A stretch of 64,000 nt of DNA from an uncultured Acidimicrobiaceae bacterium (GTDB lineage Bacteria; Actinomycetota; Acidimicrobiia; Acidimicrobiales; RAAP-2). Both the position numbers and the translations under genes were made by a program. This document shows, piece after piece, positions 2,601-46,845 of this stretch. Numbering within the stretch: the stretch's first letter is position 1; each line of letters begins with the position of its first letter. Below the pieces are notes generated by a model, which did no database searches, had not been told where the DNA came from, and worked only from the letters and a program-made list of their open reading frames with translations. The stretch covers positions 146,586 through 210,585 of the forward strand of contig CAVYQL010000002.1 of the NCBI GenBank assembly GCA_963770645.1, in the 5' to 3' direction.

Positions 2601-3320
2601 GTGACGCCCGAACCCAACGACCCGGCGGTCGCCGTGGAGGAGCCGCTGCCGGGCGCCCCACTCAGTGCCGCGCCTCCCGCTGGCCCCCACGGGCCCAATG
2701 GATCAGGCGGCCAGGACGGGACCGAAGGGCCGTCAGGTGCCCCCGAAACGGCGCCACGGTCGAACACTCGCTGGATCCGCGAGGGCGTCATCGTGGTCGT
2801 CATCGCCGTCTTGGTCGCGGTCCTGCTGCGTGCCTTCGTCGTCCAGACCTTCTTCATCCCGTCGGGTTCCATGGAGCCCACCCTCCAGATCGGCGACCGC
2901 ATCCTCGTCAACAAGCTCAGCTACGACCTTCATGGCGTCGACCGCGGCGACATCGTGGTCTTCTCGCGGCCGCCCGCCGAGAATTGCGGTGGGCCAGAGG
3001 TGAACGACCTCGTGAAGAGGGTCATCGGGCTCCCTGGGGAGACGATCTCACTCGCCAGCGGCTACGTCTACATCGACGGGAAGCGCCTCAACGAGTCCTA
3101 CCTCCCCGCACAGGAACAGGGGATCACCACCCCAGGCCCCGGAGGCCCTCCCTACAGCCTCGCGCACCCCTTCCACATCCCGGCCAACGACTACTTCGTC
3201 ATGGGCGACAACCGGGCCGATTCCTGTGACAGCCGTTACTGGGGTCCGATCCCCAAGTCACTCATCGTGGGAAAGGTCGATCTGCGGGTCTGGCCGCTCT
3301 CGTCGATCCACTTCTTCTAG
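2601..3320 (+). CDS. lepB: signal peptidase I
   Basis: GSMEPTL (catalytic Ser box), VKRVIGLPGE and GDNRADSCDSRYWGPIP boxes. N-terminal TM segment after a Pro-rich leader. Confidence 0.9.
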   Translation: MTPEPNDPAVAVEEPLPGAPLSAAPPAGPHGPNGSGGQDGTEGPSGAPETAPRSNTRWIREGVIVVVIAVLVAVLLRAFVVQTFFIPSGSMEPTLQIGDRILVNKLSYDLHGVDRGDIVVFSRPPAENCGGPEVNDLVKRVIGLPGETISLASGYVYIDGKRLNESYLPAQEQGITTPGPGGPPYSLAHPFHIPANDYFVMGDNRADSCDSRYWGPIPKSLIVGKVDLRVWPLSSIHFF

Positions 3321-3344
3321 TTCGGGCCACTTCTGGCCTGTAGC

Positions 3345-5857
3345 TCAGCCCTCGTCGGCCTCCGCCGCCACCGGCGCCACCGCCGCCACGGACTGGCCTT
3401 CGTCGAGGTTCATGACCCGGACCCCCGTCGCGTCCCGGCCCTGCGAGGCGATCTCGCGCACCACCGTCCTGATGACCACCCCACCCGAGGACACCAGCAG
3501 GATCTCTTCGTCGAGGGCCACCATGAACGCGCTGACCACGGTGCCGCGGGTACCCGTCAGCCGGATGCCGCGTACGCCCTGCCCGCCACGGGTCTGGCGG
3601 TTGAAACGCTCGAGCTTGGTCCGTTTGCCGTAGCCGGCGTCGGTGACGATGAGGATGTCGGTGTCGTCCGCCGCCACGTCCAACGACACCACGACGTCGC
3701 CCTGGCGAAGACGGATGCCGCGTACGCCGGCGGCATCGCGGCCCATCGGCCGCACGTCCTCCTCGTTGAAGCGGATGGTCATGCCGTTGCGTGTCACCTC
3801 GAAGAGGTCGTCGTGCCCCGACGTCGCCACGACGCGGACCAGCTCGTCGCCGTCGCGCAGGTTGATGGCGATGAAGCCCTCCCGCCGCGACTTGTCGTAC
3901 TCGCTCATGGCGGTCTTCTTCACCTGCCCGTGCGCCGTGGCGAAGACCAGGTACTGGTCAGGCGAGAACTCGCGCGTCGCGATGATGGCCGTGATCGACT
4001 CGTTCGGCGCCAGCGGGACCAGGTTGACGGCCGCCGTCCCGCGGCGGTGCGGTCCTTCATGGGGATCTCGTGCCCCCGCAGCCGGTAGACCTTGCCCTGG
4101 TTCGAGAAGAGCAACAGGTAGGCGTGGGCCGAGGTCTGCACCACCTGGCTCACTAGGTCCTCTTCCTTCAGGCGGGCACCCTGGACGCCGCGCCCGCCAC
4201 GGCCCTGAGTGCGGAAGGCCGCCGCCGCCACCGATTTGATGTAGCCGGCCCTGGTCATGGTCACGACGATCTCCTCGTCGTCGATCAGGTCCTCCACGCC
4301 CATCTCCCCGGGGTCGTGAGTGATGACGCTCCGGCGGGGGTTGGCGTACTTGTCGCGGATCGCGGTCATCTCGGTCTCGATGACGCCGCGCAGCTTGCCG
4401 TCGTCGGACAGGATCGCCTCGAGCTCGGCGATGGTGGCGCGCAGCTCTTCCATCTCGGCTTCCAACTCGGAGCGACCCAGCCGGGTCAGCCGGCCGAGGG
4501 TCATGTCGAGAATGTGGGTGGCTTGCACCTCGGTGAACGAGAAGGGCTCCGCCATCAACGACGTGCGGGCCTCGGGGCGGTCGGCTGACGCCCGGATCGT
4601 GGCGATGACCGCGTCGAGCATGTCGATCGCCCTGAGCAGGCCCTCGACGATGTGCGCGCGGTTGCGCGCCTTCTCCAGCCGGTATTCGGACCGACGCTGA
4701 ATGACCTCAATCTGGTGATCGATGTAGTACGAGAGTGCCTGCGCGAGGTTGAGCGTGCGTGGCACGCCGTCCACCAGGGCCAGCATGTTGACGCCGAAGC
4801 TGGTCTGGAGCGGCGTCTGCTTGTACAGGTTGTTCAAGACGACATTGGCGTTCGCGTCACGCTTGAGGTCGATGACCAGTCTCGGCTGCTGGTTGGCCGA
4901 GGCGTTGCGCATCCCGCTGATCCCGTCGAGATCGCCGGCCCGCACCAACTCGGTGATCTTCTGCTCGATCACCTCGACGGAGGTCTGATACGGGAGCTCG
5001 GAGACGACGATGTGGTCGCCGGTGCGGCCCTCCTCTATTTCGGCCACGGCGCGCATCTTGATGGAGCCGCGACCGGTCCGGTAGGCGTCGAGGATGCCCT
5101 GCCGGCCGAGGATCTGCGCGCCCGTCGGGAAGTCGGGGCCCTTGACGAACTCCATGAGCTCGTCGGGCGTCGCCTCGGGGTGGTGCAGCACGTGGATGGC
5201 TGCGTCGATCACCTCACCCATGTTGTGCGGCGGGACGTTGGTCGCCATGCCAACGGCGATGCCCTGTGACCCGTTGACCAAGAGGTTGGGGAAGCGCCCC
5301 GGCAGCACGACGGGCTCGAGGGCCGAGCCGTCGTAGTTGGCCACCATGTCGACGGTCTCTTCGTCGATGTCGGCCATCAGTTCGAGCGCGAGTGGGGCCA
5401 GGCGGCACTCGGTGTAGCGCATGGCCGCGGCGCCGTCGTCGGGACCCCGGCCGCCGAAGCTGCCGTGCCCGTCGATCAGCGGGTGGCGGAGCGAGAACTC
5501 CTGGACCATGCGGGCCAGCGCCTCGTAGATCGCCGAGTCGCCGTGGGGGTGATATGTCCCCATGACCTCTCCGACGACCTTGGCGCACTTGCTGTGGGGC
5601 CGGTCGGGACGTTGCCCGTTGTCGAACATGGAGTAGAGGATCCGGCGGTGCACCGGCTTGAGGCCGTCGCGCACGTCAGGGAGGGCGCGGGCGACGATGA
5701 CGGACATGGAGTACTCGAGGAACGAGCGCTCCATCTCCTCTTGGATCTCAATGGGCTCGATGGAGCCGCTGACCGGCTCGTCGCTCTCGGGGGGGCCCTC
5801 GCCGTCCCCGCCCGAGCCCGCTCCCCCGCGGCCCGAGCCGCGTGTCGATTGTGGCAT
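3345..5857 (-). CDS. gyrA: DNA gyrase subunit A, frame interrupted by an apparent 1-nt indel near 4041-4047
   Basis: The N-terminal ORF (3920..5857) has [24 protein letters not shown] and the full GyrA core. After [11 protein letters not shown] it turns to junk. The adjacent frame continues [20 protein letters not shown]... into ORF 3345..3923 (beta-pinwheel repeats). Confidence 0.9.
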
Positions 5858-31879: not shown

Positions 31880-32209
31880 ATGCGGCCCTACGAAGTCATG
31901 GCCATCTTCGAGGCCAGCACCGAACCGACCGTGATTCAGGGCGTGCTCGACCGCGCCCTCGAGACGATCCGGGGCGCCGGCGGCACCCCCGGCGCCATCG
32001 ACCGCTGGGGGCGCCGGGCCTTCGCCTATGAGGTGAACCACAAGCGCGAGGGTTACTACGTCGTGGTGGACTTCACCGGCGAGCCCGAGACCGTGGCCGC
32101 CCTGGACCGCATGCTCGGCCTGGCCGATGAGGTGGTGCGCCACAAGGTGGTGCGTCTCCCCGACCACAAGGCGCCCGCAGGTGCCGGCGCCGCGCCGGCA
32201 GCCGGCTGA
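31880..32209 (+). CDS. rpsF: 30S ribosomal protein S6
   Basis: MRPYEVMAIF...WGRRAFAYEVNHKREGYYVVVDF. Confidence 0.95.
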   Translation: MRPYEVMAIFEASTEPTVIQGVLDRALETIRGAGGTPGAIDRWGRRAFAYEVNHKREGYYVVVDFTGEPETVAALDRMLGLADEVVRHKVVRLPDHKAPAGAGAAPAAG

Positions 32210-32260
32210 CCGGCTGGATTTCACGGTCGGCTCGAGGGATCGGCGAGAGGAGCAGAGAAG

Positions 32261-32758
32261 ATGCCGTCAGACAACAGCGTGACGCTGGTCGGGAACGTGA
32301 CCCGTGACCCCGAGCTGCGCTTCACCAACACCGGACAGGCCAACGTGACGTTCGGCCTGGCGGTCAACCGCCGCTGGCAGAACCGCCAGACCCAGGAGTG
32401 GGAGGAGGCCACCTCCTTCTTCGACGTGGTGTGCTGGCGCGAGATGGCCGAGAACGTCAGCGAGTCCATCACCAGGGGCGCCCGCGTGATGGTGGCCGGC
32501 CGCCTCGAGCAGCGCAGTTGGGAGACCCAAGAGGGCGATCGCCGGTCCAAGGTCGAGGTCGTGGCCGACGAGATCGGGCCATCACTGCGCTGGGCCACGG
32601 CCCAGATCACCAAGAACGACCGCCGAGGCCCGAGCGACGGCTCCGGGCGCGGCGGTGGCGGCGGTGGTGGGCGCCAGTCAGCGCCTGCGCCGGCGCCGAC
32701 ACCACAGCCCCAGCCGGCGAACGAAGCCGGCTATGGATTCGACGAGGAGCCTTTCTGA
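32261..32758 (+). CDS. ssb: single-stranded DNA-binding protein
   Basis: OB-fold N-terminus ([16 protein letters not shown]), Gly-rich linker, acidic tip DEEPF. Confidence 0.95.
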
Positions 32759-33372
32759 TGGCACGCAGCAACCAACGCGGGGGGACGACGTCTCGGCGCG
32801 CCCCCAAGGATCTCGGGCGCCGGATCAAGAAGAAGCCCTGCGCCCTGTGCCGCGACAAGGTCGAGTGGGTCGACTACAAGGACATCCCGATGCTGCGCAA
32901 GTACATGAGCGACCGCGGCAAGATCCGCTCGCGCCGGGTGACGGGCAACTGTGCGCAGCACCAGCGGGCGCTCGCCATGGCCATCAAGACGGCGCGTGAG
33001 CTCGTCCTGCTCCCGTACACGCAGCGCACCGTGACCGAGCGTCCGGGCGGCCGCGGCCGCGACCGCGACCGTGGAGAGCGGACGCTCGGCGACGTCACAC
33101 CAGGGGATCGTGGGGACCGCGGCGACCGCGGGGATCGCGGCGATCGCGGTGCCCGGCCACCGCGGAGTGAGGCCATCGCGGTCGAAGTGATCGACAACAC
33201 AGACGCCCTGGGCGACACCGAGACCGAGAATGCCGTGGCCGCGGAGGTCGGCGAGTTGGTCGAGGAGATGGTCGAGGACGCCGTGGCGAGTGAGGCCACG
33301 AACGGTGCCGAGGCAACCGGCGCCGCTGCGGGCGTCGCCGGTGCTGGCGGGGACGAAGGCGGGGCCGCATGA
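32758..33372 (+). CDS. rpsR: 30S ribosomal protein S18 with ~120-aa C-terminal extension
   Basis: ATG overlaps the ssb stop (TGATG). Core [52 protein letters not shown]. Followed by a (GDR)n repeat and an acidic tail up to the ATGA overlap with rplI. Confidence 0.85.
33103..33150 (+). repeat. 5 x 9-bp in-frame tandem repeat (GDR units) in the rpsR extension
   Basis: ggggatcgt ggggaccgc ggcgaccgc ggggatcgc ggcgatcgc ggt. Confidence 0.9.
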
Positions 33373-33818
33373 AGGTGCTCTTGCGCGACGACGTGGCGGG
33401 CGTGGGCCGGCGCGGTGACATCGTCAAGGTCGCCGGCGGCTTCGCGCGCAACTTCTTGTTGCCTGAGGGCCGCGCCATCGTGGCGGGCGACGGCGTCGAG
33501 GGTCAGGCCGGGCAGATGCGCCGCCGGCGCGACCTACGCGAGGCCCAGGACCGCAGCGCGGCGGAGGCGCAGGCTGCGCTGCTGGCCGGCGCGGTGATCC
33601 CCATCAAGGCGCGGGCGGCCGGCGGGGGCCGTCTCTTCGGCTCGGTGGGTTCGGCCGAGGTGGCCGATGCCATCAGAGCGTCCAAGGGCGTCGAGGTGGA
33701 CCGCAGGCACGTGGTGCTGCCCGAGCAGATCAAGGAGACGGGCAGCTTCGAGGTGACCGTCGAGTTGTTCAGCGACGTATCGGTCGTCCTCACGGTAGAG
33801 GTCAGCCCCGTCAGCTGA
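33369..33818 (+). CDS. rplI: 50S ribosomal protein L9
   Basis: [32 protein letters not shown]. Confidence 0.95.
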
Positions 33819-33990
33819 GCGGACCGGTGTCCAGGTGGGAGAGGGTGTCGCCTGGGTGGCCCGCTCGATCATCGTGGGTTCGGCGCGTTGGGAACCCCGG
33901 TACGGGTGTGACAGCGCAGTGCTCATGATGTCGGGGTGACGGCGAAGGCGCTCCTCGGCGGGCTTGGGGGCCCGACCATTCGTTCACGGG

Positions 33991-34053
33991 TTATCCACAC
34001 CGCTGGCGTGCTTACACCCACAGTTACCCACATGACGAACGACCTTTCCCACA
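33991..34053 (+). promoter_or_regulatory. array of same-orientation DnaA-box-like motifs upstream of dnaB
   Basis: TTATCCACA (33991-33999, perfect E. coli-type consensus), TTACACCCACA (34012-34022), TTACCCACA (34024-34032), TTTCCCACA (34045-34053). Confidence 0.45.
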
Positions 34054-34104
34054 GCAAGTTCTTTCTTACGTTCCCCAGCTCCGTGCCGTCAGAGTAGGGG
34101 GGCC

Positions 34105-35496
34105 GTGGTCCAAGCCTTCGACGACACCCGCCCCCGTGCCCTCCGGCCGGCTTCTTCCTCCGCTGGCGCGGGCCCGCGGGTGCCTCCGCACGACCTCGAG
34201 GCCGAGCAGTCGCTCCTCGGGGCCATGCTGCTGTCCAACGACGCGGCGTCGGTGGGGATCGAGACCTGCTCGAGCGGTGACTTCTACAAACCGACGCACG
34301 GCCACATCTTCTCGGCTATCCGGGCCCTAATGGAGCGCGGCGAGGCTATCGACGCCGTCACGGTCACTGACGAGTTGAAGCGCTCGGGACTGCTCGAGCA
34401 GGTCGGTGACCCCTCCATCTTCATCTCGCTCCAGGCCAACACGCCCTCGATCGCCAACGCGCGGCACTACGCGCAGATCGTCGAGGAGCACTCCCTCCTG
34501 CGACGGCTGATCGGCGTGGCCGGCGACATCGCCGACATCGGCTACTCGGTTCCAGAGGACGTCAAGGGGGCGGTCGACGAGGCCGAGAAGCTCGTCTTCG
34601 ACGTGGGCGAGCGACGGACGGCCGACACCATGCGCCCGCTGCGCGAGCTGCTGGGCGCGGGACTCGACCGGATCGAGGAGCTGGGCCAGCGGGGCTCGCA
34701 CATCACGGGCGTGGCCACCGGCTACCACGAACTGGACAAGATCCTGCTCGGCTTCCAGCCGTCGTCGCTCAACATCGTGGGTGCTCGTCCCGGCATGGGA
34801 AAGACGAGCTTCGCGCTCGGCGTCCTGGCCAACGTGGGGCTCAACGTCGGACGGCCCGCGCTGTTGTTCTCTCTCGAGATGGGCCACCTCGAGCTCACCC
34901 AGCGGTTGCTCGCGTCCGAAGCCGAGGTCAACGGGCAGAGCCTGCAGACGGGGCGGATCCGCACACAGGACTGGAGCAAGATCGGAATGGCCGTCACCCG
35001 CCTCTCGGGCGCGCCGATCTTCATCGACGACAACCCCAACGTGACCGTGATGGACATCAGGGCCCGGGCGCGGCGGTTGAAGAAGTCCGAGGGAGATCTC
35101 GGGCTGGTGGTGGTCGACTACCTCCAGCTCATGACCGGGCGGGGGCGGGCCGAGAACCGCCAGACCGAGGTGGCCGAGATCAGCCGGGGCCTCAAGATCC
35201 TGGCCCGGGAACTCGAGGTTCCCGTCGTCGCCCTCTCTCAGCTGTCCCGTAACCTCGAGTCGCGTTCGGACAAGACGCCACAACTCTCGGACCTGCGCGA
35301 GTCAGGGTCACTCGAGCAGGACGCCGACGTCGTTCTCTTCATCTACCGCGAGTCGGAGTACAACGACGAGGTACCGATCGACCGCGCGGACGACGCGCTG
35401 GTCGAAGTGGCCAAACACCGAAACGGACCGACCGGCAAGGCCAATCTGCTCTTCCTCAAGCAGTACGCGCGTTTCGAGAACCACCGAGGGGTCTAG
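34105..35496 (+). CDS. dnaB: replicative DNA helicase DnaB
   Basis: PPHDLEAEQSLLGAML, GARPGMGKTSFAL Walker A, VVDYLQLM, RecA-like C-terminus. Normal length, no intein. Confidence 0.95.
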   Translation: MVQAFDDTRPRALRPASSSAGAGPRVPPHDLEAEQSLLGAMLLSNDAASVGIETCSSGDFYKPTHGHIFSAIRALMERGEAIDAVTVTDELKRSGLLEQVGDPSIFISLQANTPSIANARHYAQIVEEHSLLRRLIGVAGDIADIGYSVPEDVKGAVDEAEKLVFDVGERRTADTMRPLRELLGAGLDRIEELGQRGSHITGVATGYHELDKILLGFQPSSLNIVGARPGMGKTSFALGVLANVGLNVGRPALLFSLEMGHLELTQRLLASEAEVNGQSLQTGRIRTQDWSKIGMAVTRLSGAPIFIDDNPNVTVMDIRARARRLKKSEGDLGLVVVDYLQLMTGRGRAENRQTEVAEISRGLKILARELEVPVVALSQLSRNLESRSDKTPQLSDLRESGSLEQDADVVLFIYRESEYNDEVPIDRADDALVEVAKHRNGPTGKANLLFLKQYARFENHRGV

Positions 35497-37043: not shown

Positions 37044-37850
37044 TCACGAGCGCGTCGCAGGCAGGTCCACGATGTCGGCCAGCCCCGGTGCGCCCGCGCG
37101 GCGGGCGCGGCGGCGGACCAGCCGCCACCCGAGGACACAGCCACCGGCCAGCGCGACCAGAGCGCCGGCCCACGGCGAGACGAGGTAGCCGAAGAGCACC
37201 GCCGCTGCGTACTCGGTGGCGATCACGACGGTGAGCACGACCGGTCCGAGGCTGGTGAAGCGGCGGTGGAACGCGGCCAGCGTGGCCGGGCTCGTGATGG
37301 GACGCCCGAGGAAGACGGCAAGGCCGCGCACCAAGCCGAACAGCGCGCCGAGCACCACCGCGGCCCACCATGAGCCGGTCAACACAGACAGGACCGCCAG
37401 CAGGTACACGCCGGCGGTCCTGATGTAGGTCACGAACCCCGTGCCGATCTGCCAACCGAAGCCGGCGCCGTAGACCCACGGCCGGAACTGGTCGAGCCAG
37501 CGCTCATTGACCTGGCGATGGTGCACCGGGAGCGCGAGCCCGCCGACCTGCGCGTCCGAGGCTGCGCTGACCACTGACGCGGCGCAAGCCAGCAGCGCCA
37601 AGGTCACGGGCGAGAGCCCCGCCGCGCCCACGCCCAGCGCGACAACCCCCAGCGCCAGCCCGAGTGTCACCCCGCCCGCCACGGAACCGGCGACGAACCA
37701 CAGTGCGGTCGCGCGGTAGCGATGGCCCCGCCCGGCTTCGGCCAGCGGCGTGATCGTTGCCAGCATCGAGACCCCGCACGGCGACCAGGTGGAGCGGGCG
37801 GCCGCGACGACAGCCACCACGGCGGCGGAGACACCGGGCACGATGGTCAT
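37044..37850 (-). CDS. polytopic membrane protein, DsbD/CcdA-like (SPC motif), last gene of the mau-like operon
   Basis: ATG 37850 with AGGAA upstream. About 6 hydrophobic segments. STWSPCGVSML resembles the conserved Cys-containing first TM of DsbD-family electron transporters. Only the last 268 codons of the 684-aa track ORF are real. Confidence 0.5.
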   Translation of the reverse strand: MTIVPGVSAAVVAVVAAARSTWSPCGVSMLATITPLAEAGRGHRYRATALWFVAGSVAGGVTLGLALGVVALGVGAAGLSPVTLALLACAASVVSAASDAQVGGLALPVHHRQVNERWLDQFRPWVYGAGFGWQIGTGFVTYIRTAGVYLLAVLSVLTGSWWAAVVLGALFGLVRGLAVFLGRPITSPATLAAFHRRFTSLGPVVLTVVIATEYAAAVLFGYLVSPWAGALVALAGGCVLGWRLVRRRARRAGAPGLADIVDLPATRS

Positions 37851-37881
37851 GGCAATTCCTTTCGTCGATCTCGAGGGCAGT

Positions 37882-39282
37882 TCATGCCGGCGACCCCAAG
37901 AAGGGCGCCGTGCCGAAGGCGAAGATCCCGCCGTCCGCCGCGACGAGCCAGTAGCCCGCGTCGTCACCGAAGGGGGCCATCCCGACGACGGGCATGGCGA
38001 GCTTGAGCGAACCGGTCGACCCGTCGAACGCCGCGTCGCCGTAGGCGAATATCCCGCCGTCCGCCGCGACGAGCCAGTAGCCGCGCCCCGAGGGCGTGGC
38101 GGCCATGCCCACCACCGGCGCGTTGAGCGGCCGGCCCCCCATGGACCCGAGGAAGGGCGCGTCGCCGTAGGCGAAGATCCCGCCGTCCGCCGCCACCAGC
38201 CAGTAGCCGCTCCCCGAGGGCGTCGCGGCCATGCCCACCACCGGCGCGTTGAGCGGCCGGCCCCCCATGGACCCGAGGAAGGGCGCGTCGCCGTAGTCGA
38301 AGATGCCGCCGTCGGCCGCGACGAGCCAGTAGCCCGATCCGGTCGCGGCGCCCGCCATGCCGACCACGGGCGCGTTGAGCGCTTGGCCCCCCATGGACCC
38401 GAGGAACGGCGCCCCGCCGTAGTCGAAGATGCCGCCGTCGGCCGCGGCGAGCCAGTAGCCGCCGGTGAAGCAGGCGGCGCCCCCCACGACCGGCGCATCG
38501 AGGTGGAGCCCGGACGCGTCGCCCGCATTCGTGAAGTCGCCGTAACCGAGCAGCAGCCCGAAGGAGGTGAGGACCGCGTAGCCGCCTCCGTCGACGCTCG
38601 GCACCATCCCGACCACCTGGCAGTTCGTGGTCGGCGAGTCGCACGGGGGCATCGGCGGCGCGGGCGTCCAGCAGGACTCGTTCTGCTCGGCCGTCGAGTT
38701 GTCGACCGCCACCGCGGTCGTGCACGTGGGGTCGACCTGCCAGGGTGGCACGCAGGCGACGACGCGGCACACGATGCGTCCCAGGCACTCGACGTCCTGG
38801 TTGCACTGGCCGTACCGGAACTGCAGGCAGCCGGTGAGAAAGGAGTTGCACCCCTGGGACCCACAGCCGCAATTGGTCCCGTCGCACTCGGTCTCACAGA
38901 ACGGAAAGCCGCCGCTGCACCCGGCCGCGCAACTACAGGTCGAGTTGCAGTCCATGTAATAGCGCGGCCCGTTGCAGTAGGAGGAGCCCTCCGCGACCCA
39001 CCAGCCACCCATGATGGTGTTCTCGGGGCAGTAGTTGTACCCGCTGACCGCGCAGCAGAACTCCGAGAAGCCCGAGCAGCACGTGCTCCCGCAGTCACAG
39101 CCGGCGTTCCCGCATTCGCAGATCTGGCCGTACGCGGTGCCCGGTCGCAGCGCGAGGTCGAGCCCGGACCCGATGGCGACCGCGCTGCCGACGAACGCGG
39201 AACGGTTGATCAGGTTGCGGCGCGACAACCGACTCTCGAGCGCGCGCGCCGTGCGCGTCACGAGCGCGGTGGACAGACTCAC
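37882..39282 (-). CDS. Tat-signal protein: MauA-like (methylamine dehydrogenase light-chain-like) Cys-rich domain fused to ~6 x 42-aa propeller-like repeats
   Basis: GTG 39282 in a GTGA overlap with the upstream stop. SRRNLINRSAFVGSAVAIGSG twin-arginine leader. About 28 Cys in ~170 aa, including GCDCG...NYCPENTIMGGWWVAEGSSYCNGPRYYMDC, which parallels MauA ICDCSG...NCPPGTKLATASWVASCYNPTDGQSYLIAYRDCC (recalled). Then repeats GYWLVAADGGIFxYGDAPFLGSMGGxxLNAPVVGMAxxxxGx. Confidence 0.6.
   Translation of the reverse strand: MSLSTALVTRTARALESRLSRRNLINRSAFVGSAVAIGSGLDLALRPGTAYGQICECGNAGCDCGSTCCSGFSEFCCAVSGYNYCPENTIMGGWWVAEGSSYCNGPRYYMDCNSTCSCAAGCSGGFPFCETECDGTNCGCGSQGCNSFLTGCLQFRYGQCNQDVECLGRIVCRVVACVPPWQVDPTCTTAVAVDNSTAEQNESCWTPAPPMPPCDSPTTNCQVVGMVPSVDGGGYAVLTSFGLLLGYGDFTNAGDASGLHLDAPVVGGAACFTGGYWLAAADGGIFDYGGAPFLGSMGGQALNAPVVGMAGAATGSGYWLVAADGGIFDYGDAPFLGSMGGRPLNAPVVGMAATPSGSGYWLVAADGGIFAYGDAPFLGSMGGRPLNAPVVGMAATPSGRGYWLVAADGGIFAYGDAAFDGSTGSLKLAMPVVGMAPFGDDAGYWLVAADGGIFAFGTAPFLGSPA
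37885..38586 (-). repeat. 126-bp (42-codon) tandem repeats, about 5.5 copies; the central copies are nearly identical
   Basis: Units starting at 38041 and 38167 differ at only a handful of positions over 126 bp. The outer copies are progressively more diverged. Confidence 0.9.
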
Positions 39283-39860
39283 GACCCGACCATCCCCTTG
39301 GCCGGCGTCGGCCGGACCAGGCGGCGCGCGCCTTCGAGTGCGGCGAGCGACGAGAGCGCCAGCAGGCTCAGCCAGAGCCCGACCACGCTCACGAACAGCA
39401 GGGGGACCCCGGCCCAAGGCTGATGAGCGAGCTCGTCGAGGAGCGTCCCGTGCGACGGGGCGGTGGCGGCGACGACGGCCGCGGCGACGGCGAGGGTCAG
39501 GTCGAGCAGCAGGTGGACGCTCGTCGGCGGCGTGTCCGGCCGTCCGAAGCAGCCGCAAGTCGCGAGTGGGCCGCCGCGCCAGCGTGCGTAGGTGACGACG
39601 GCGCCGAAGGCCGCGTAGGAGAGCGCGACGAGGGCCGCCGTGAGCGGCCGGGGCAGCACCAGCGCGGCGATCCCAAGAACAGCTTCTGCCGACGCGCCGG
39701 CACGTACGAGCCGCCGTGTCGAGCCGAGCGAGGGTGCGGCACGGCCCCGAGTGGCGAGGGCGCCGAGGGCGCGCGCCGTGTCGTCGGGGTGGAGTGCCTT
39801 GGCCACGCCGGCGACCACGAGCAGCCCCGCCGCGACGAGGTAGAGACCGATCAGCTCCAC
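39279..39860 (-). CDS. MauE/DoxX-family redox-associated membrane protein
   Basis: GTG 39860 (VELIGLYLVAAGLLVVAGVAKAL). Four hydrophobic segments with CGCFG between them, as in MauE-family proteins (recalled). Confidence 0.65.
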   Translation of the reverse strand: MELIGLYLVAAGLLVVAGVAKALHPDDTARALGALATRGRAAPSLGSTRRLVRAGASAEAVLGIAALVLPRPLTAALVALSYAAFGAVVTYARWRGGPLATCGCFGRPDTPPTSVHLLLDLTLAVAAAVVAATAPSHGTLLDELAHQPWAGVPLLFVSVVGLWLSLLALSSLAALEGARRLVRPTPAKGMVGS

Positions 39861-40339
39861 CCGGGCCCCGCGGGCGCGTCGACGGGCGCGGCCGGGCTCA
39901 CGCCCAGCGCTTTGAGGAGCGCGTTGACGCGCGGGACGAGGGTGGTGCGGCGCGCGTGGCTGCCCAGTACCGCGTAGAAGGAGAACGGCCGGCCCGCTTC
40001 GGTGAAGAACCACTGGGTGCCCGACTGACCGGGGATACCGCGTCGAAGCACGGTGGGGGAGAAGTCCGCCGCCGAGAGCCCGGCGGGCCGGCCCTGGTGC
40101 GCGAACAAGGCGGTGCCGAGGCTCTCGGGCCCGTACTCGAACAGCGTGGCGAACACGTCGGCGGGTCCCATGATGGACACCGCACCGCTCCCGAAGTCGC
40201 CGGTGTCATCGGGCAGCGGGAACGTGGAGAACTGCGCCACCGGGTAGCTCGAGCCGACGAAGGTCGGCCGCACGATGATCCGGCCCTCGAAGCCTTCGGG
40301 GAGCCGGGCCGAGATGCCGTGCGCGCCGATGGTGGCCAT
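39851..40339 (-). CDS. hypothetical protein (no signal peptide, no recognised domain) inside the mau-like operon
   Basis: 162-aa ORF with balanced composition. Its ATG lies 3 nt after the upstream stop, and its 3' end overlaps the next start by 10 nt. Confidence 0.5.
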   Translation of the reverse strand: MATIGAHGISARLPEGFEGRIIVRPTFVGSSYPVAQFSTFPLPDDTGDFGSGAVSIMGPADVFATLFEYGPESLGTALFAHQGRPAGLSAADFSPTVLRRGIPGQSGTQWFFTEAGRPFSFYAVLGSHARRTTLVPRVNALLKALGVSPAAPVDAPAGPGWS

Positions 40340-40342
40340 GGC

Positions 40343-41254
40343 TCAGCGCCGCACCGGCCGTCCGCGCTCGAGCGGCCCTGGCGTCTGCGGCGGGGACGTG
40401 CCGAAGGGGAACACGTCATCGAGGGTGCGCGGGTACAGACTCGGGTCGCCGGGTTTGATGCCGGCCGCCCGCAGCACCTCGTCGGCGGCCGCTTCGCGGG
40501 CTGGGCCATCGAGGCCGCCGGCACCGACGGCGCCATCAGTGCCGTCAGAGCGGTCAGGGCGGTCAGGGCGGTCAGGGTGGTCAGGGCGGTCAGGGTGACG
40601 GCCCGGGCCCGAAGCGGCGCGGTCGTGCTCGGCGCGTCGGATGAGCTCGGCCAGCTGGCCCACGTGATTGGCCACGCCCTGCCCGACTTTGCTGCCCGTC
40701 GACCCGTCGACGAGGACGAAGAAGGGAGAGCCGGGGACCTGGTAGTCGACCCAGGCCTCGGTCGACATGACGACAGGGATACGCCCGCTGGCCTGCGCCC
40801 GCACCTCGGAGGGGACTTCGCGGTCGGGTCCCTTGGTGACGATGACGGCGCGGCTGTGCCCGGGCAGATCGAGCACGCCGGGTTGCTGGAGCGCGTGCCA
40901 GAAGCCCGCGCACGAGGCGCAGCCCGAGGAGAGGAAGGCCAAGAGCGTGAGGCCGTCGCTGTTGGTGACCGAGATGGCCCGGGCGTCCCCGGTCGGGGTC
41001 ACGCCGGCCACCGTCGGCGCGGGGCCGAGCGGCGGGCTGCCCGCCGGTGGGACCAGCGAGACCGGTGGCGCCACCGCGACCGCCGCGGCCCGGCTGGCCG
41101 TGGCGACCGTCCCCTCGTCCAGGGCGGGGTCGCCCACACCCGCGCCCAGCTCGTGCAGCGAACGGAGGATGTCGGCGTGGGACCGCAAGAGCCCGGCCAC
41201 CAGGATCCCGAGGACCAGCACCACGAACGTCGAGACCACGACCAGAGCAATCAC
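40343..41254 (-). CDS. membrane-anchored thioredoxin-fold protein, MauD/TlpA-like (CxxC)
   Basis: GTG 41254 preceded by AAGGAGG. N-terminal TM (VIALVVVSTFVVLVLGILVAGLL). Trx-like core with LAFLSSGCASCAGFW. Pro/Asp-rich repeat linker and C-terminal tail. Confidence 0.62.
   Translation of the reverse strand: MIALVVVSTFVVLVLGILVAGLLRSHADILRSLHELGAGVGDPALDEGTVATASRAAAVAVAPPVSLVPPAGSPPLGPAPTVAGVTPTGDARAISVTNSDGLTLLAFLSSGCASCAGFWHALQQPGVLDLPGHSRAVIVTKGPDREVPSEVRAQASGRIPVVMSTEAWVDYQVPGSPFFVLVDGSTGSKVGQGVANHVGQLAELIRRAEHDRAASGPGRHPDRPDHPDRPDRPDRSDGTDGAVGAGGLDGPAREAAADEVLRAAGIKPGDPSLYPRTLDDVFPFGTSPPQTPGPLERGRPVRR
40544..40597 (-). repeat. 6 x 9-bp in-frame tandem repeat (PDR/HPD units) in the MauD-like gene
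   Basis: gtcagagcg gtcagggcg gtcagggcg gtcagggtg gtcagggcg gtcagggtg on the plus strand. Confidence 0.9.
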
Positions 41255-42596: not shown

Positions 42597-43331
42597 ATGT
42601 TCACGCCGACGGCGGACAAGCTGATCCCCGACTTGACGCCGCGTGAGGAACTGGTCGTCCTCGCCCGCGCCCTGTGGCGCGAGGGCTACAACGACCACCT
42701 GGCCGGCCACATCACCGTGAACCAGGGCGACGGCACGCTGCTCTGTAACCCGTGGCTCCTGACCTGGGCCGAGCTGAGGCCCTCCCAGGTGCTGCGCATC
42801 GATCTCGAGGGCCGCGTGGTCGAGGGCGACTGGCCCGTCCCGCTGGGCATTCCGCTCCACCTCGAGCTGCACAAGATGCGCCACGACGTGAAGTGGGCGA
42901 TGCACAACCACCCGCTCTTCGGCACCGTGTGGGCCGACATCGCCGAACTGCCGCCGATCCTCGACCAGAGCTCGGCGCTGGGTGGCGGGACGCTCGCGCT
43001 GGTCGACGAGTACGAGGGCCCCGTCAACGACGCCGGCAGCGCCCGGCGCGCCGTGGAGCAGATGGGCGACGCGTCGATGGCGCTCTTGGCGGGCCACGGC
43101 GTGTTCGTGCTCGGCGGTTCGGCCCGGGCGGTCCATCAGCGCGCCGTGGCCCTCGAGCAACGGTGCCAGCACGCCTGGTACGCGCGCGCCGTCGGCGGCT
43201 CGGCAGTCTCACGGGTCCCCCAAACATTCATCGACCTCGTCTCGCGGGGGAACGGCGAGGGTTTCATCGGATTCTGGGAGGCAGCGGTCCGAAACGAGCT
43301 GGCCGCCGACCCCGACTTGCTCCAGCCCTAG
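42597..43331 (+). CDS. class II aldolase/adducin family protein
   Basis: GHITVN..., HLELHKMR.DV.WAMHNHP, LLAGHGVFVLG motifs. Confidence 0.8.
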   Translation: MFTPTADKLIPDLTPREELVVLARALWREGYNDHLAGHITVNQGDGTLLCNPWLLTWAELRPSQVLRIDLEGRVVEGDWPVPLGIPLHLELHKMRHDVKWAMHNHPLFGTVWADIAELPPILDQSSALGGGTLALVDEYEGPVNDAGSARRAVEQMGDASMALLAGHGVFVLGGSARAVHQRAVALEQRCQHAWYARAVGGSAVSRVPQTFIDLVSRGNGEGFIGFWEAAVRNELAADPDLLQP

Positions 43332-44404
43332 CGGCTGGCGGCGCCCGTCCCGAAGACCTCGCTCAGCTCGAACGGGACGGGCGTCTGGAGCTGGGCGTAG
43401 GTGCACGATGGCGGGTCGCGGTCGGGCCGCCAGCGCACGAACGAGGTGGCGTGGCGGAAGCGGTCGTGCTGGAGGTGGTCGTAGGAGACCTCGCACACCG
43501 CCTCGGGCCGGACCGCCTCCCAGGTCATGTCCTTGCCCGCGTTCCAGCGATTGGTGGCACCGGGCGCGCGGCCCTCGGCCTGTGCCTCTGCCCAGCCCGC
43601 CCACGGGTGTCCCTTCAGGGCATTCGTGCGATAGGGCGCGAGCTCGTCGGTGAGCTCGCGCCGCCGGGCCACACTGAACCCCGACGCCACTCCGACATGG
43701 TGCAGGGTCCCTGAGGAGTCAAAGAGGCCGAGCAGCAAGGAACCGACGCCGGCACCGTCTTTGTGCGTGCGGAAGCCGGCCACCACACAGTCGGCCGTGC
43801 GCTGGTGCTTGACCTTGAGCATGGCGCGCTTGTCGGGCAGGTAGGCGAGGTCGGCCCCCTTGGCCACCACGCCGTCGAGGCCGGCGCCCTCGAAGCGGGC
43901 GAACCAGTCGGCTGCCACGTCGGGGTCCCGGGTCGCCGGGGTGAGGTGCACCGGCGCGCGCACCTTCTTGAGAAGCTTCTCGAGCGTGGCGCGGCGCCGG
44001 GCGTACGGGGTCTCGAGGAACGAGGTGTCGTCGTGCGCCAGCAGGTCGAAGGCCACGAAGGATGCCGGGGTCGACTCGGCCAGCTGGCGGATGCGCGTCG
44101 CCGCCGGATGGATGCGCTGGGAGAGGGCGTCGAAGTCGAGCCCGTTGGGGCCGGCGACCACGATCTCGCCGTCGAGCACGCAGCGGGCCGGGAGCTCGCG
44201 CACCAGGGCGGCAACGAGCTCGGGGAAGTAGCGCGTGAGCGGCTTCTCGTTGCGGCTCCCGAGCTCGACGTCGTCGCCGTCGCGGAAGACGATGCAGCGG
44301 AAGCCGTCCCACTTGGGCTCGTAGAAGAGCCCGTCGTCGCGCGGCAGGTCGCGGGTGAGCTTGGCCAGCATGGGCGCCACCGGCGGGCGGACGGGCAGGT
44401 TCAT
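43328..44404 (-). CDS. ligC: ATP-dependent DNA ligase (LigC-type, adenylation + OB domains only)
   Basis: MLAKL...YEPKWDGFRCIVF (KxDG adenylation Lys), LDGEIVV, DGVVAK, LKVKH. ATGA overlap with the upstream PHP gene. Confidence 0.85.
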   Translation of the reverse strand: MNLPVRPPVAPMLAKLTRDLPRDDGLFYEPKWDGFRCIVFRDGDDVELGSRNEKPLTRYFPELVAALVRELPARCVLDGEIVVAGPNGLDFDALSQRIHPAATRIRQLAESTPASFVAFDLLAHDDTSFLETPYARRRATLEKLLKKVRAPVHLTPATRDPDVAADWFARFEGAGLDGVVAKGADLAYLPDKRAMLKVKHQRTADCVVAGFRTHKDGAGVGSLLLGLFDSSGTLHHVGVASGFSVARRRELTDELAPYRTNALKGHPWAGWAEAQAEGRAPGATNRWNAGKDMTWEAVRPEAVCEVSYDHLQHDRFRHATSFVRWRPDRDPPSCTYAQLQTPVPFELSEVFGTGAASR

Positions 44405-45426
44405 GACGACGCCCCGTGCTCGCCGGCCCAGGCCACGAGCTCGTCGGCTGTGCCGCGGTTGACCACACGCTCGGAGGGGACGCCCGCGGCAACGGCATTG
44501 CGGCAGCCGCGGCCGAGCCATTCGAGCTGTCCGGGGGCGTGCGCGTCGGTGTCGATGGCGAAGGAGCAGCCGAGCTCGACGGCCTGGCGCAGGAGGTCTT
44601 CGGGGGGATCCTGGCGTTCGGGGCGCGAGTTGATCTCGACAGCCGTGCCGGTACGCGCACAGGCCGTGAACACCGCGTCGGCGTCGAAGGACGACTGCGG
44701 ACGGCCCCGGCCGGTGATCAGGCGGCCCGTGCAGTGGCCGAGGATGTCGCTGTGCGGGCTCTCGATGGCGGCCAGCATGCGCGCCGTCATCTGGGGCTCG
44801 TCCATGCGCAGCTTGGAGTGCACGCTGGCGACCACCACGTCGAGCTCTCCCAAGAGCTCGGGGTCGAGGTCGAGCGAGCCATCTTCCAAGATGTCGACTT
44901 CCATTCCGGTGAGGATGCGGAACGGGCCCAGTTGCGCGTTCAGCCCGCGAACCACGTCGAGCTGTTCGCGCATCCGCTCCTCGTTCAGACCGTGGGCCAC
45001 GGTGAGGCGCGCGCTGTGATCGGTCAGCACCAGGTACTCGCGGCCGAGGCCGCGGGCGGCTTCGGCCATCTCGAGGATGGGGCTCCCCCCGTCGGACCAG
45101 TCCGAGTGTGAGTGGCAGTCGCCGCGTAAGGACTCGAGGAGCGCCGCAGCCGGACCCTCGAGGACGAGGTCCTCGGGTTCCTCGTCCAGCTTGACCAGGT
45201 AGGCGGGGGTGTCACCGCGCAGGGCCTCGACAATCACCTGCGCCGTGGACTTGCCCACGCCCTCGATGCTCTGGAGCCGGCCCGCCGCGGCGAGCGACTC
45301 CAACTCCTCCCGCGGCACCGCTGCGATGGCACGGGCAGCATGGCGGAAGGCCCGCACCTTGTAGGTGTCGGCGCCACCGCGCTCCAGGCGGAACGCAACC
45401 TCGTTGAGCGCGTCGAGCGGTTCCAT
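44401..45426 (-). CDS. PolX-like HhH + PHP domain protein lacking a polymerase palm
   Basis: N-terminus YKVRAFRHAARAI...LQSIEGVGKSTAQVI (HhH). PHP motifs GDCHSHSDWSDG, VLTDHS, SVHS, GHCTGR, DTDAH. Confidence 0.8.
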   Translation of the reverse strand: MEPLDALNEVAFRLERGGADTYKVRAFRHAARAIAAVPREELESLAAAGRLQSIEGVGKSTAQVIVEALRGDTPAYLVKLDEEPEDLVLEGPAAALLESLRGDCHSHSDWSDGGSPILEMAEAARGLGREYLVLTDHSARLTVAHGLNEERMREQLDVVRGLNAQLGPFRILTGMEVDILEDGSLDLDPELLGELDVVVASVHSKLRMDEPQMTARMLAAIESPHSDILGHCTGRLITGRGRPQSSFDADAVFTACARTGTAVEINSRPERQDPPEDLLRQAVELGCSFAIDTDAHAPGQLEWLGRGCRNAVAAGVPSERVVNRGTADELVAWAGEHGASS

Positions 45427-45440
45427 CCCCACCCCGCGCA

Positions 45441-46451
45441 CTAGTCCTTCTTGGCGCGACTGGGTGCCACGCGGGTCGGCTCGTCGGGCATCTTGGGGTA
45501 CTGGGGTGGCCACGGCGCATCGTGCAGGCCGGCCTCGCGGTCCCGTGCCGCCAGCTCGAGCAGGGGCTCGAGTGACTGTGGCCGGGCCGCGATGTCGGCC
45601 CACGGGTCGCCCCGCCGCCGTACCAGTTCGGGCACCGTCGAGATGGTGAGATCGTCGGGGACGACGGACTCCACCTCGTCCCACGACAGCGGGGTCGAAA
45701 CCTGGCCGCCGGTGCGGGGCCGCGCGAACCAGGCACCGAAGACCGTCTTGTGCGGCGCGTTCTGGTTGAAGTCGACGAAGACCCTGCTCCCGCGCTCCTC
45801 CTTCCACCAGTTGGCCGTGACGTCGTCGGGAAACCGGCGCTCGAGCTCGCGGGCCAGCGCCAGCGCGCCGGCGCGGACCTGCACCGAGTCCCAGCGCGGT
45901 TCCAGCCGGAGATAGACGTGCAAGCCGTGGCTGCCCGTGGTCTTGGGGTAACCCCTGAGGCCGAGCTCTTCGAGGAAGTCACGACACCGCAGCGCGGCGA
46001 CGCGCACCTCGTCGAAGCCGATGCCCTTCGTCGGGTCCAGGTCGATGCGCAGCTCGTCGGCGTGCGCAGGGTCGGCGGCCAGGTACGGCCAGAGGTGGAG
46101 CCCGAGGCAGCCGACGTTCACCGCCCAGATGACGTGCGCAAGGTCGGCGACGACGAGCGCGTTGGAGGTCGTGCCGTTGGGCGTCGACACGATGGTGGAC
46201 TGCAGCCAGTCGGGTGCACCGGCCGGGATGCGCTTTTGGTAGAAGGACTTGCCTGTCGCGCCGTCGGGGAAGCGCTGCAACAGGGCAGGACGCCCGCCGG
46301 CGGTGTTGAGCAGGTGGTCGCCGATCTCGAGGTAATAGGAGACGAGGTCGGACTTGGTCGCGCCGAGGCCGGGGAAGTACACCTTGTCGGGCCGGGAGAT
46401 ACGGAGCTCGTGGCCGTCGACCTCCACCAAGCGTTCGTCGTCCCCTGGCAC
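45441..46451 (-). CDS. LigD-type primase-polymerase domain protein (PolDom / Prim-PolC-like)
   Basis: ISRPDKVYFP, LQRFPDG..GKSFYQK, RIDLDP, PKTTGSHGLHVY, VFVDFNQN motifs of the archaeo-eukaryotic primase fold. Start GTG 46451 uncertain. Confidence 0.8.
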   Translation of the reverse strand: MPGDDERLVEVDGHELRISRPDKVYFPGLGATKSDLVSYYLEIGDHLLNTAGGRPALLQRFPDGATGKSFYQKRIPAGAPDWLQSTIVSTPNGTTSNALVVADLAHVIWAVNVGCLGLHLWPYLAADPAHADELRIDLDPTKGIGFDEVRVAALRCRDFLEELGLRGYPKTTGSHGLHVYLRLEPRWDSVQVRAGALALARELERRFPDDVTANWWKEERGSRVFVDFNQNAPHKTVFGAWFARPRTGGQVSTPLSWDEVESVVPDDLTISTVPELVRRRGDPWADIAARPQSLEPLLELAARDREAGLHDAPWPPQYPKMPDEPTRVAPSRAKKD

Positions 46452-46494
46452 CGCCTGGACTCTAGTGACGGCCGCCTTCGCGGGCGCCGTCCGC

Positions 46495-46845
46495 TCAGGC
46501 GGGCTGGGTCTCCGCCTGGGTCCCGAGTGCGCGAGTCGGCGGTGCCACGACGCCGCGCTCGGCGAGCTCGCGCTCGAGCCGGGCCCGCTCGTGCACGGGG
46601 TTGGCGAACCGGTCCGGCGTCGCCGGGACCTCGAGGGCTTCACAGAGCCTGATGAGCGCCCCGTCGTAAGAAAGCTCCCGGGCCAGGGCTTCTGCGACAG
46701 GGGTTGCCCCGTTCGTCGCACCAAGCCTGGCCCGGGAGTGTACGAGGTCGGCCATCAACAGGTCGTGTGACCTGCGCCCTTCCTCACCTTTGCCAAGGGC
46801 CCGCGTCAGGAGGTCTATGTACATGACCACCTTGCGATCCTGCAC
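46495..46845 (-). CDS. hypothetical protein upstream of PolDom
   Basis: 116-aa ATG ORF with protein-like composition (K/D/E/Y/M present). Co-directional, 43 nt from the PolDom start. No family recognised. Confidence 0.4.
   Translation of the reverse strand: MQDRKVVMYIDLLTRALGKGEEGRRSHDLLMADLVHSRARLGATNGATPVAEALARELSYDGALIRLCEALEVPATPDRFANPVHERARLERELAERGVVAPPTRALGTQAETQPA

Follow-up and report, generated by a model that had tools for sequence, protein, structure and literature searches.

A conserved five-gene Mau-type cassette in Acidimicrobiales: a probable dedicated system for the export and oxidative folding of a cysteine-rich client protein

INTRODUCTION

What is made by a gene whose product starts with a leader like that of MauA, the methylamine dehydrogenase (MADH) small subunit, and continues with a densely cysteine-rich domain and a series of propeller-like repeats? 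The question is raised by an open reading frame (ORF) at positions 37882-39282 (minus strand) of a 64,000-nucleotide stretch of DNA from an uncultured Acidimicrobiaceae bacterium (GenBank assembly GCA_963770645.1, contig CAVYQL010000002.1, positions 146,586-210,585); this whole stretch is called the window below, and the protein encoded by the ORF is called the client. An earlier note on this DNA had proposed that the client might be a single-chain analogue of the MADH light and heavy chains with a cofactor like the tryptophan tryptophylquinone (TTQ) of MauA or, as a fallback, a propeller with a binding role that carries a purely structural knot of disulfides.

It has been known since the 1990s that MauF, MauE and MauD are needed for the MADH small subunit. 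To our knowledge, neither the role of MauF nor the reason for the unusually long leader of MauA has ever been explained. We found homologues of all three proteins encoded next to the client, and we consider it probable that the operon is a dedicated Mau-type cassette for leader-linked export and oxidative folding, in which the cysteine-rich head of the client would be a wall-tethered disulfide knot of a new fold.

RESULTS

The leader of the client and its relation to MauA

The client gene has a GTG start and encodes 466 residues, the same length as in its homologues. Three parts can be distinguished, all on the minus strand: a MauA-type twin-arginine leader (residues 1-52, positions 39127-39282), a cysteine-rich head (residues 53-221, positions 38620-39126) and a C-terminal half of 42-residue repeats, which AlphaFold and Foldseek assign to a six-bladed beta-propeller (residues 222-466, positions 37885-38619). 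The protein contains 29 cysteines, 28 of them inside residues 55-221, and the earlier note was exact in its coordinates, its leader and its count of about 28 cysteines in some 170 residues. Searches with the whole client against Pfam, NCBIfam and the PDB (phmmer and profile) returned no relevant match; type VI secretion system sheath proteins and Ole e 6, which appeared only marginally (E ~1), were rejected as relatives.

The leader includes SRRNLINRSAFVGSAVAIGSG and the twin-arginine motif SRRNLI, and its 52 residues end with TAYG. Across diverse relatives the RR pair is invariant; it closes a conserved, helical region (LV.RAS..L..R.SRR). A core of weak hydrophobicity comes next, and the cleavage probably takes place after TAYG/TAYA. 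Among the models of twin-arginine translocation (Tat) signals, PF10518 matched 3 of 69 relatives and TIGR01409 reached an E-value of 0.02 in one relative.

As references for MauA we used the exact sequence from chain L of PDB entry 2BBK and 117 MauA and aromatic amine dehydrogenase (AADH) precursors. The whole precursors of the client and MauA were aligned by hhalign with a probability of 96.9% (E 1.3e-10), and splitting of this alignment by region placed the score in the leader. The leader alone matched the MauA leaders with a probability of 97% (E 9.4e-11) and a score of 48.5, compared with 9.6 ± 2.0 for a column-shuffle null (z ~19). The part before SRR, taken alone, gave an ungapped alignment flush with the RR (P 5.6e-6), with none of 150 shuffles scoring as high; here the client consensus lv.ras..l..rt, followed by SRR, pairs with fD.l.E.ltRrvA.rt, likewise followed by SRR, on the MauA side. 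As neither the generic Tat motif nor the hydrophobic core lies in this region, the resemblance is particular to MauA and goes beyond that of a Tat signal. On these sequence comparisons the client leader is judged to be homologous to the MauA leader, and we infer that the client is exported via the Tat pathway.

The operon encodes homologues of MauF, MauE and MauD

The client is encoded by the fourth of five packed genes that span positions 37044-41254 on the minus strand. Neighbouring genes overlap or sit 3 nt apart, except that 31 nt separate the last gene from the one before it, and the GTG start of the client overlaps the stop codon of the upstream MauE gene in the 4-nt sequence GTGA. The overlapping start and stop codons suggest coupled translation. 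In some assemblies MauE (PF07291) and the Cys-rich client are called as one protein of 518-661 residues; in view of the 4-nt overlap, such joined proteins could have arisen artefactually, from frameshifts or gene calling, or could be true fusions.

The accessory proteins were compared, as small profiles, with the Mau proteins of four canonical mau clusters by hhalign. The resulting matrix was a clean diagonal, with all off-diagonal pairs at E > 0.01. The last gene of the operon (37044-37850) encodes a polytopic membrane protein of 268 residues that matched MauF with a probability of 99.1% (E 6.6e-19, 186 columns) and shared 32% identity with the Methylobacterium MauF by blastp (E 2e-4). Its motif STWSPCG (residues 20-26, positions 37773-37793), with one conserved cysteine, recurs unchanged in three MauF proteins of canonical clusters (genes at positions 4598-5455, 2653-3477 and 2615-3463 of loci L004, L007 and L008, respectively), and 77 copies of the cassette show at least 90% conservation of it. 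A second block, RQV....R.W..G..G...G...TY..T, is also common to the cassette proteins and canonical MauF. The single-cysteine motif resembles the xPC motifs of thiol transporters of the CcdA/DsbD type, which suggests that MauF is redox-active.

The gene just upstream of the client (39279-39860) encodes a MauE homologue, a DsbB-like membrane thiol oxidase with a CGCFG site, which was recognized by PF07291 (E 1.3e-13) and matched MauE by hhalign with a probability of 83.8% (E 7.9e-6). The first gene of the operon (40343-41254) has a GTG start preceded by the Shine-Dalgarno sequence AAAGGAGG and encodes a MauD-like protein of 303 residues, which consists of an N-terminal hydrophobic helix as the membrane anchor and a thioredoxin fold with a CASC site (active-site motif FLSSGCASCAGFW). 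It matched MauD with a probability of 96.6% (E 6.6e-10, 172 columns), and its only match in NCBIfam was the MauD model TIGR02661, with scores far under the cut-off (E 0.013, and 0.012 for a second member of the family). Its C-terminal tail after the thioredoxin domain contains a low-complexity repeat (about 40540-40605, minus strand), HPDRPDHPDRPDRPDRSD, which on the opposite strand reads AVRAVRAVRAVRV; the homologues in two related loci are 20-30 residues shorter.

The remaining gene (39851-40339) encodes a protein of 162 residues that is specific to the cassette. It belongs to no recognized family: no match was found in Pfam, NCBIfam or the PDB with the single sequence or the profile, nor any similarity to MauJ, MauL or any of the other Mau proteins. 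Its 1011 homologues are all named 'hypothetical'. The protein carries no signal peptide and is probably cytoplasmic.

The five genes stay together in related genomes

The gene order MauD-like, 162-residue protein, MauE, client, MauF-like was found in 67 of 67 loci with full flanks from species-representative genomes of Acidimicrobiales, and none of 80 related loci lacked the MauD-like or the 162-residue gene. The genes that flank the cassette vary from locus to locus. Clients fused to LGFP or CWB2 modules (see below) also have all four accessory genes alongside, in a different order.

These observations bear on an alternative in which the genes are neighbours with no specific tie. In that case the organism's general disulfide machinery would consist of MauE and the MauD-like protein, which would just happen to be encoded next to one abundant, Cys-rich secreted protein, and the leader would be an ordinary Tat signal. 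Such a reading is favoured by the proposal that MauE is a generalist and by its presence in many phyla without MauA, and the genome was not searched for other DsbB or VKOR homologues. It is opposed by the joint conservation of the five genes in the face of varied client C-termini and flanks and by the suggested translational coupling. In addition, the part of the leader that matches MauA lies outside the generic Tat motif, and the conserved set includes a homologue of MauF, a protein otherwise known only from mau clusters. We therefore regard adjacency without specificity as unlikely.

The genes specific to TTQ formation and methylamine oxidation are missing from the cassette. Searches by tblastn, with a threshold of E ≤ 1e-5 for the 80 related loci and of E ≤ 0.01 for the 64-kb window, detected no MauB, MauG or amicyanin (MauC), and the best MauG matches in the window were short pieces (E ≥ 0.026); MauJ, MauL, MauM and MauN were likewise absent from the 80 loci and the window. 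The window contains no di-haem ORF with two CxxCH motifs. PF06433 and PF03150 matched none of the genes called in four related loci (L001, L002, L005 and L006), and no partner of the radical-SAM (QhpD) or flavoprotein (QhpG/LodB) families was seen in the gene neighbourhoods examined.

The cysteine-rich head is probably not a TTQ protein

The earlier note had lined up the head with MauA and had placed one of its tryptophans opposite the first TTQ tryptophan. With the mature domains only, hhalign arrived at the same register: it pairs the client segment N.CP..T....WWVA with TNCPPGTKLATASWVA of MauA and sets W95 opposite MauA Trp57. This alignment, however, hardly exceeds chance and does not qualify as significant: its score of 22.3 (P 0.007) compares with 13.7 ± 3.1 for the null, and 3 of 150 column shuffles scored as high. 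The other comparisons were negative. PF02975 and TIGR02659 had no match in the client at E ≤ 1, and PF02975 had none among 69 diverse relatives at E ≤ 0.01. The profile of the client family retrieved no MauA chain from the PDB at E ≤ 10, and in reciprocal searches of mature MauA against the mature head (hmmsearch --max) the scores were no better than those of reversed or shuffled decoys. Foldseek of the predicted head fold against the PDB gave 29 matches at E ≤ 10, with no MADH or AADH chain among them. The check by hidden Markov models (HMMs) and the fold comparison thus both went against a MauA-like mature domain.

The conservation of tryptophans among 112 relatives points in the same direction for the second half of the cofactor. 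W94 and W95 are invariant (112/112), but the two candidates that the earlier note named for the second tryptophan are not conserved: W181 is replaced by tyrosine in 24 relatives and kept in 86, and W205 is leucine in 82; the column opposite MauA Trp108 is variable. The remark in the earlier note that the second TTQ tryptophan has no obvious counterpart therefore holds.

As a single-chain quinoprotein, the client would have a head that is a divergent MauA with TTQ or another tryptophan-derived quinone and a propeller in the role of the MADH heavy chain. The homology of the leader and of the MauF, MauE and MauD genes to the MADH system is in keeping with this idea, as are the invariant WW pair and the position of W95 opposite Trp57 within the motif N.CPPGT....W.A; the first hydroxylation of MauA Trp57 is, moreover, independent of MauG. 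The mature domain, however, shows no HMM signal above decoys and no Foldseek match to MauA, and the positions that could provide a second tryptophan are variable or occupied by other residues. Neither MauG, MauB, amicyanin, a flavoprotein nor a radical-SAM gene was found in the window and the 80 related loci. The even number of head cysteines (see below) argues against a Cys-Trp thioether. The propeller has no relationship to MauB, and relatives carry different modules in its stead. Taken together, the proposal of a single-chain analogue of the MADH light and heavy chains with TTQ failed on the HMM and fold comparisons, the second tryptophan, MauG and the propeller, and we consider a single-chain quinoprotein very unlikely. 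What survives from the earlier note is an evolutionary tie to the MauA system, which is carried by the leader and the MauF, MauE and MauD genes, whereas the mature head is not demonstrably related. A cofactor of the cysteine tryptophylquinone type, as in the gamma subunit of quinohemoprotein amine dehydrogenase or in LodA/GoxA, was considered too and rejected on the basis of the even cysteine counts, the lack of partner genes and the swapped C-termini.

The head cysteines behave as disulfide pairs

The number of head cysteines is even in 97 of 112 relatives, and the variable ones covary in pairs: 57 with 69 (r = 1.0), 55 with 64 (r = 0.91), 129 with 133 (r = 0.91) and 136 with 151 (r = 0.88). 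Even counts together with pairwise gain and loss are a signature of structural disulfides. By this reasoning, the client of the window would have about 13 disulfides in the head and one in the linker (C214-C221). Across the diverse set of relatives, ten cysteines are invariant, together with N83, P86, G93, W94, W95, D111, F155, R156, Y157, G158, R173 and T197; the invariant motifs are GWW, RYY.DC, FRYGQC and CR. Our best guess is that the head has a ligand-binding or enzymatic surface centred on the invariant WW, RYY.D and FRYGQ.

A head that binds iron-sulfur clusters, copper or zinc and is loaded in the cytoplasm would account for the use of Tat, which commonly carries cofactor-loaded proteins. 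The density of cysteines (28 in 170 residues) and the CxC and CC motifs are compatible with metal binding, and the cytoplasmic 162-residue protein could, speculatively, serve as a loading chaperone. Against this, the cysteines are even in number and are gained and lost in pairs, and the partner proteins are disulfide-forming enzymes. No ferredoxin-type CxxCxxCxxxCP pattern is present in the head, no iron-sulfur or metallothionein model of Pfam matched it, and MauA, which has a similar leader, holds disulfides only. A metal- or cluster-binding head thus appears highly improbable.

In a first AlphaFold run, with 82 close homologues, the head reached a predicted local distance difference test (pLDDT) score of only 30-50, and its docking on the propeller was not readable. 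With a diverse alignment, residues 61-200 of the head were modelled at pLDDT 88-96. Neither the PDB nor BFVD yielded a Foldseek match to this model at E ≤ 0.001, a result to be read with the weakness of Foldseek for small, irregular, disulfide-rich folds in mind. The predicted fold of the head is apparently new.

The C-terminal propeller is an interchangeable module

In the C-terminal half, the earlier note had described six units, the last of them truncated, and this is borne out by the map of the units: six 42-residue units comprise a degenerate one (at residue 234), four full ones and a truncated last one. GYW occurs in five of them, at residues 275, 317, 359, 401 and 443, and units 2-6 are 55-88% identical in pairwise comparison. 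At the DNA level they form a 126-bp tandem repeat of 4.5 copies with 83% matches. AlphaFold (82 homologues) modelled residues 222-466 at a pLDDT of ~90 as six repeated three-strand units, and Foldseek matched the model to more than 1300 propellers of the PDB at E ≤ 0.001 (best 7e-9), generic and WD40-like, indicating that the C-terminal half is a six-bladed propeller. The 42-residue repeat has no match in Pfam. The suggestion that the propeller is the equivalent of the MADH heavy chain had to be abandoned, since MauB has seven blades and the hhalign probability of a relationship with it was 0.09%.

Among 69 diverse relatives of the head, 14 have LGFP repeats in place of the propeller, and others end with CWB2, SLH, ricin-type lectin, FG-GAP, DUF4214 or tectonin modules. 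This swapping of C-termini indicates that the propeller is an interchangeable module and not a conserved partner of the head. Repeats of the client type are also fused to SpoIID, YkuD L,D-transpeptidase and fn3 domains in other proteins. By analogy with these modules, the propeller is probably a cell-envelope-binding module. The fallback of the earlier note, a disulfide knot on a propeller that is presumed to bind, agrees better with the evidence.

Distribution of the client family

An exhaustive profile search found 516 head-containing clusters at 50% identity, 205 of them with E ≤ 1e-30, in proteins of 230-900 residues. With the pattern CxxFRYGQC[NH], at least 590 loci were confirmed in species-representative genomes. 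All of the 80 best ones belong to metagenome-assembled genomes (MAGs) of Acidimicrobiales, Acidimicrobiaceae or unclassified Actinomycetota, and the closest ones come from soil and peat MAGs. In the source databases the relatives are named 'hypothetical' or after their C-terminal domain, and no description of the family was found in the literature searched. Some relatives bear the label 'ribosomal protein L24E' (JGI), which we rejected as a false positive of the zinc-ribbon-like model PF01246 on the Cys-rich head; weak matches to this model occurred in 2 of 69 relatives (best E 9e-5).

In Streptomyces, MauE and MauD homologues adjoin Cys-rich candidate precursors of RiPPs, peptides that are made by the ribosome and modified after translation (PMC7794033). 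The client could by comparison be a secreted toxin, a bacteriocin or a RiPP-like product with a modification-guiding leader, to which its leader-plus-core layout would correspond. Its 466 residues with a C-terminus of the wall-binding type fit poorly with such a product, as does a single conserved locus that recurs at least 590 times in species-representative genomes, and the conserved set contains no gene for immunity, ABC export or a peptidase. We consider this explanation exceedingly improbable.

Other features of the window

Two features of the window outside the operon may be mentioned. The gene for ribosomal protein S18 (about 32785-33372, plus strand; MARSNQRGG...) has an apparent C-terminal extension of ~110 residues, with repeats and an acidic tail. 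The extended gene ends 4 nt into the start of rplI, within an rpsF-ssb-rpsR-rplI-dnaB cluster at positions 31880-35496. A DNA-end-repair cluster at positions 43328-46724 (minus strand), in which the called ORFs overlap, encodes a DNA ligase of the ATP-dependent kind, a PHP/PolX-like protein and a polymerase domain of the LigD type.

DISCUSSION

A working model of the cassette

The results can be combined into the following model. The client would be made with its 52-residue MauA-type twin-arginine leader and then exported. MauE, a quinone-linked, DsbB-like protein with a CGC site, would re-oxidize the membrane-anchored MauD-like thioredoxin through its CxxC site, and the MauD-like protein would in turn install 13-14 disulfides in the head (residues 53-221). 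The MauF homologue, with the invariant cysteine of its STWSPCG motif, and the 162-residue protein may assist, either in the handling of the leader or in a thiol relay. The leader would be removed after TAYG, and the six-bladed propeller would hold the finished head at the cell envelope, a task that may fall to LGFP, CWB2, SLH or lectin modules in relatives.

The direction of redox flow in this model is inferred by analogy with published work on MauE and MauD. It is only since a 2026 preprint that MauE is known as a DsbB-like oxidase: it can replace DsbB in Escherichia coli through its CXC site, MauD has been proposed as its DsbA-like partner, and earlier genetics cited in the same paper showed that MADH maturation requires both MauE and MauD (bioRxiv 10.64898/2026.03.05.709764).

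Several points weigh against this model. The same paper argues that MauE is a generalist oxidase for which a dedicated client is not required (bioRxiv 10.64898/2026.03.05.709764). The roles given here to the MauF homologue and the 162-residue protein are guesses, and what we say about the activity of the head, like our other statements at the level of function, is built on sequences and a structural model. The fold of the head was compared with that of MauA by Foldseek search and not by direct superposition.

A further difficulty is that Tat normally exports folded proteins, a poor fit for a head whose disulfides have to be made outside the cytoplasm. The same paradox exists for MauA.

Finally, the weak signal between the mature domains (p ~0.01-0.02), the position of W95 opposite Trp57 and the complete conservation of the WW pair leave room for a cofactor. 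The head could be a very divergent descendant of MauA with a MauG-independent, tryptophan-derived redox cofactor at W94-W95, for example a mono-hydroxylated or quinone tryptophan or a new cross-link. We see only a slim chance of this, but if it were true, the family would be a novel class of quinoproteins that consist of one polypeptide, are anchored to the wall and are widespread in Acidimicrobiia. More likely than such a cofactor, in our opinion, is a general leader-guided maturation pathway formed by MauF, MauE, MauD and the MauA-type leader, with the MADH small subunit as just one specialized client.

Significance of a reduced Mau system

The value of the cassette lies in what it retains: exactly MauF, MauE, MauD and a MauA-type leader, with everything specific to TTQ and methylamine gone. 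The loss of those genes and the retention of these four elements indicate that the latter form one functional unit, separable from quinone biosynthesis. Hundreds of natural variants of the cassette are available for comparison. Censuses based on Pfam and InterPro, in which most species with MauE lack MauA, miss cryptic clients of this kind with a MauA-type leader.

As far as the libraries and papers searched go, the client family, its fold, the 162-residue component and the setting in a non-methylotrophic actinobacterium are new, and the machinery is of the Mau type. Among published work, the candidate RiPP clusters of Streptomyces (PMC7794033) come closest to a hint that helpers of the Mau type also act on other Cys-rich clients.

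Comparison with known systems

The closest known system is the mauFBEDACJGMN cluster of methylotrophs. Both encode MauF with STWSPCG, MauE with CGCFG and a MauD with an anchored thioredoxin fold and a CxxC site, and in both MauE is encoded just upstream of a Cys-rich client whose long twin-arginine leader aligns without gaps before the RR. The cassette differs in that MauB, MauC, MauG, MauJ, MauL, MauM and MauN are missing and an extra gene, for the 162-residue protein, is present. Mature MauA has 125 residues and 12 cysteines, compared with ~170 residues and 26-28 cysteines in the head of the client, and HMM and fold searches detect no kinship between them; the client also lacks the second TTQ tryptophan and has a C-terminal anchoring module. 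The hosts of the mau clusters are proteobacterial methylotrophs, whereas the cassette was found in an actinobacterium of the Acidimicrobiales.

For the C-terminal half, the appropriate comparison is with the wall modules of Gram-positive bacteria. Relatives of the client have LGFP, SLH and CWB2 modules exactly where the client has its propeller, and the repeat of the client is itself attached to the peptidoglycan enzymes SpoIID and YkuD in other proteins. In contrast to these modules, the 42-residue repeat is not covered by any Pfam model and is presumed to bind the wall.

With the MauE that has been characterized as a generalist (bioRxiv 10.64898/2026.03.05.709764), the MauE of the cassette shares the Pfam family, the CXC-FG motif and a partner with a thioredoxin fold. 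It differs in being locked in an operon together with a MauF homologue and one particular client whose leader is of the MauA type, which suggests a specialized rather than a generalist system. The DsbB-DsbA and VKOR-DsbA pairs offer the same presumed logic, in which a quinone-linked membrane oxidase passes oxidizing power to a thioredoxin-fold carrier and from there to an exported substrate. In the cassette, however, the membrane component comes from an unrelated family and is encoded together with its substrate, and two conserved components, the MauF-like and the 162-residue proteins, are added to the pathway.

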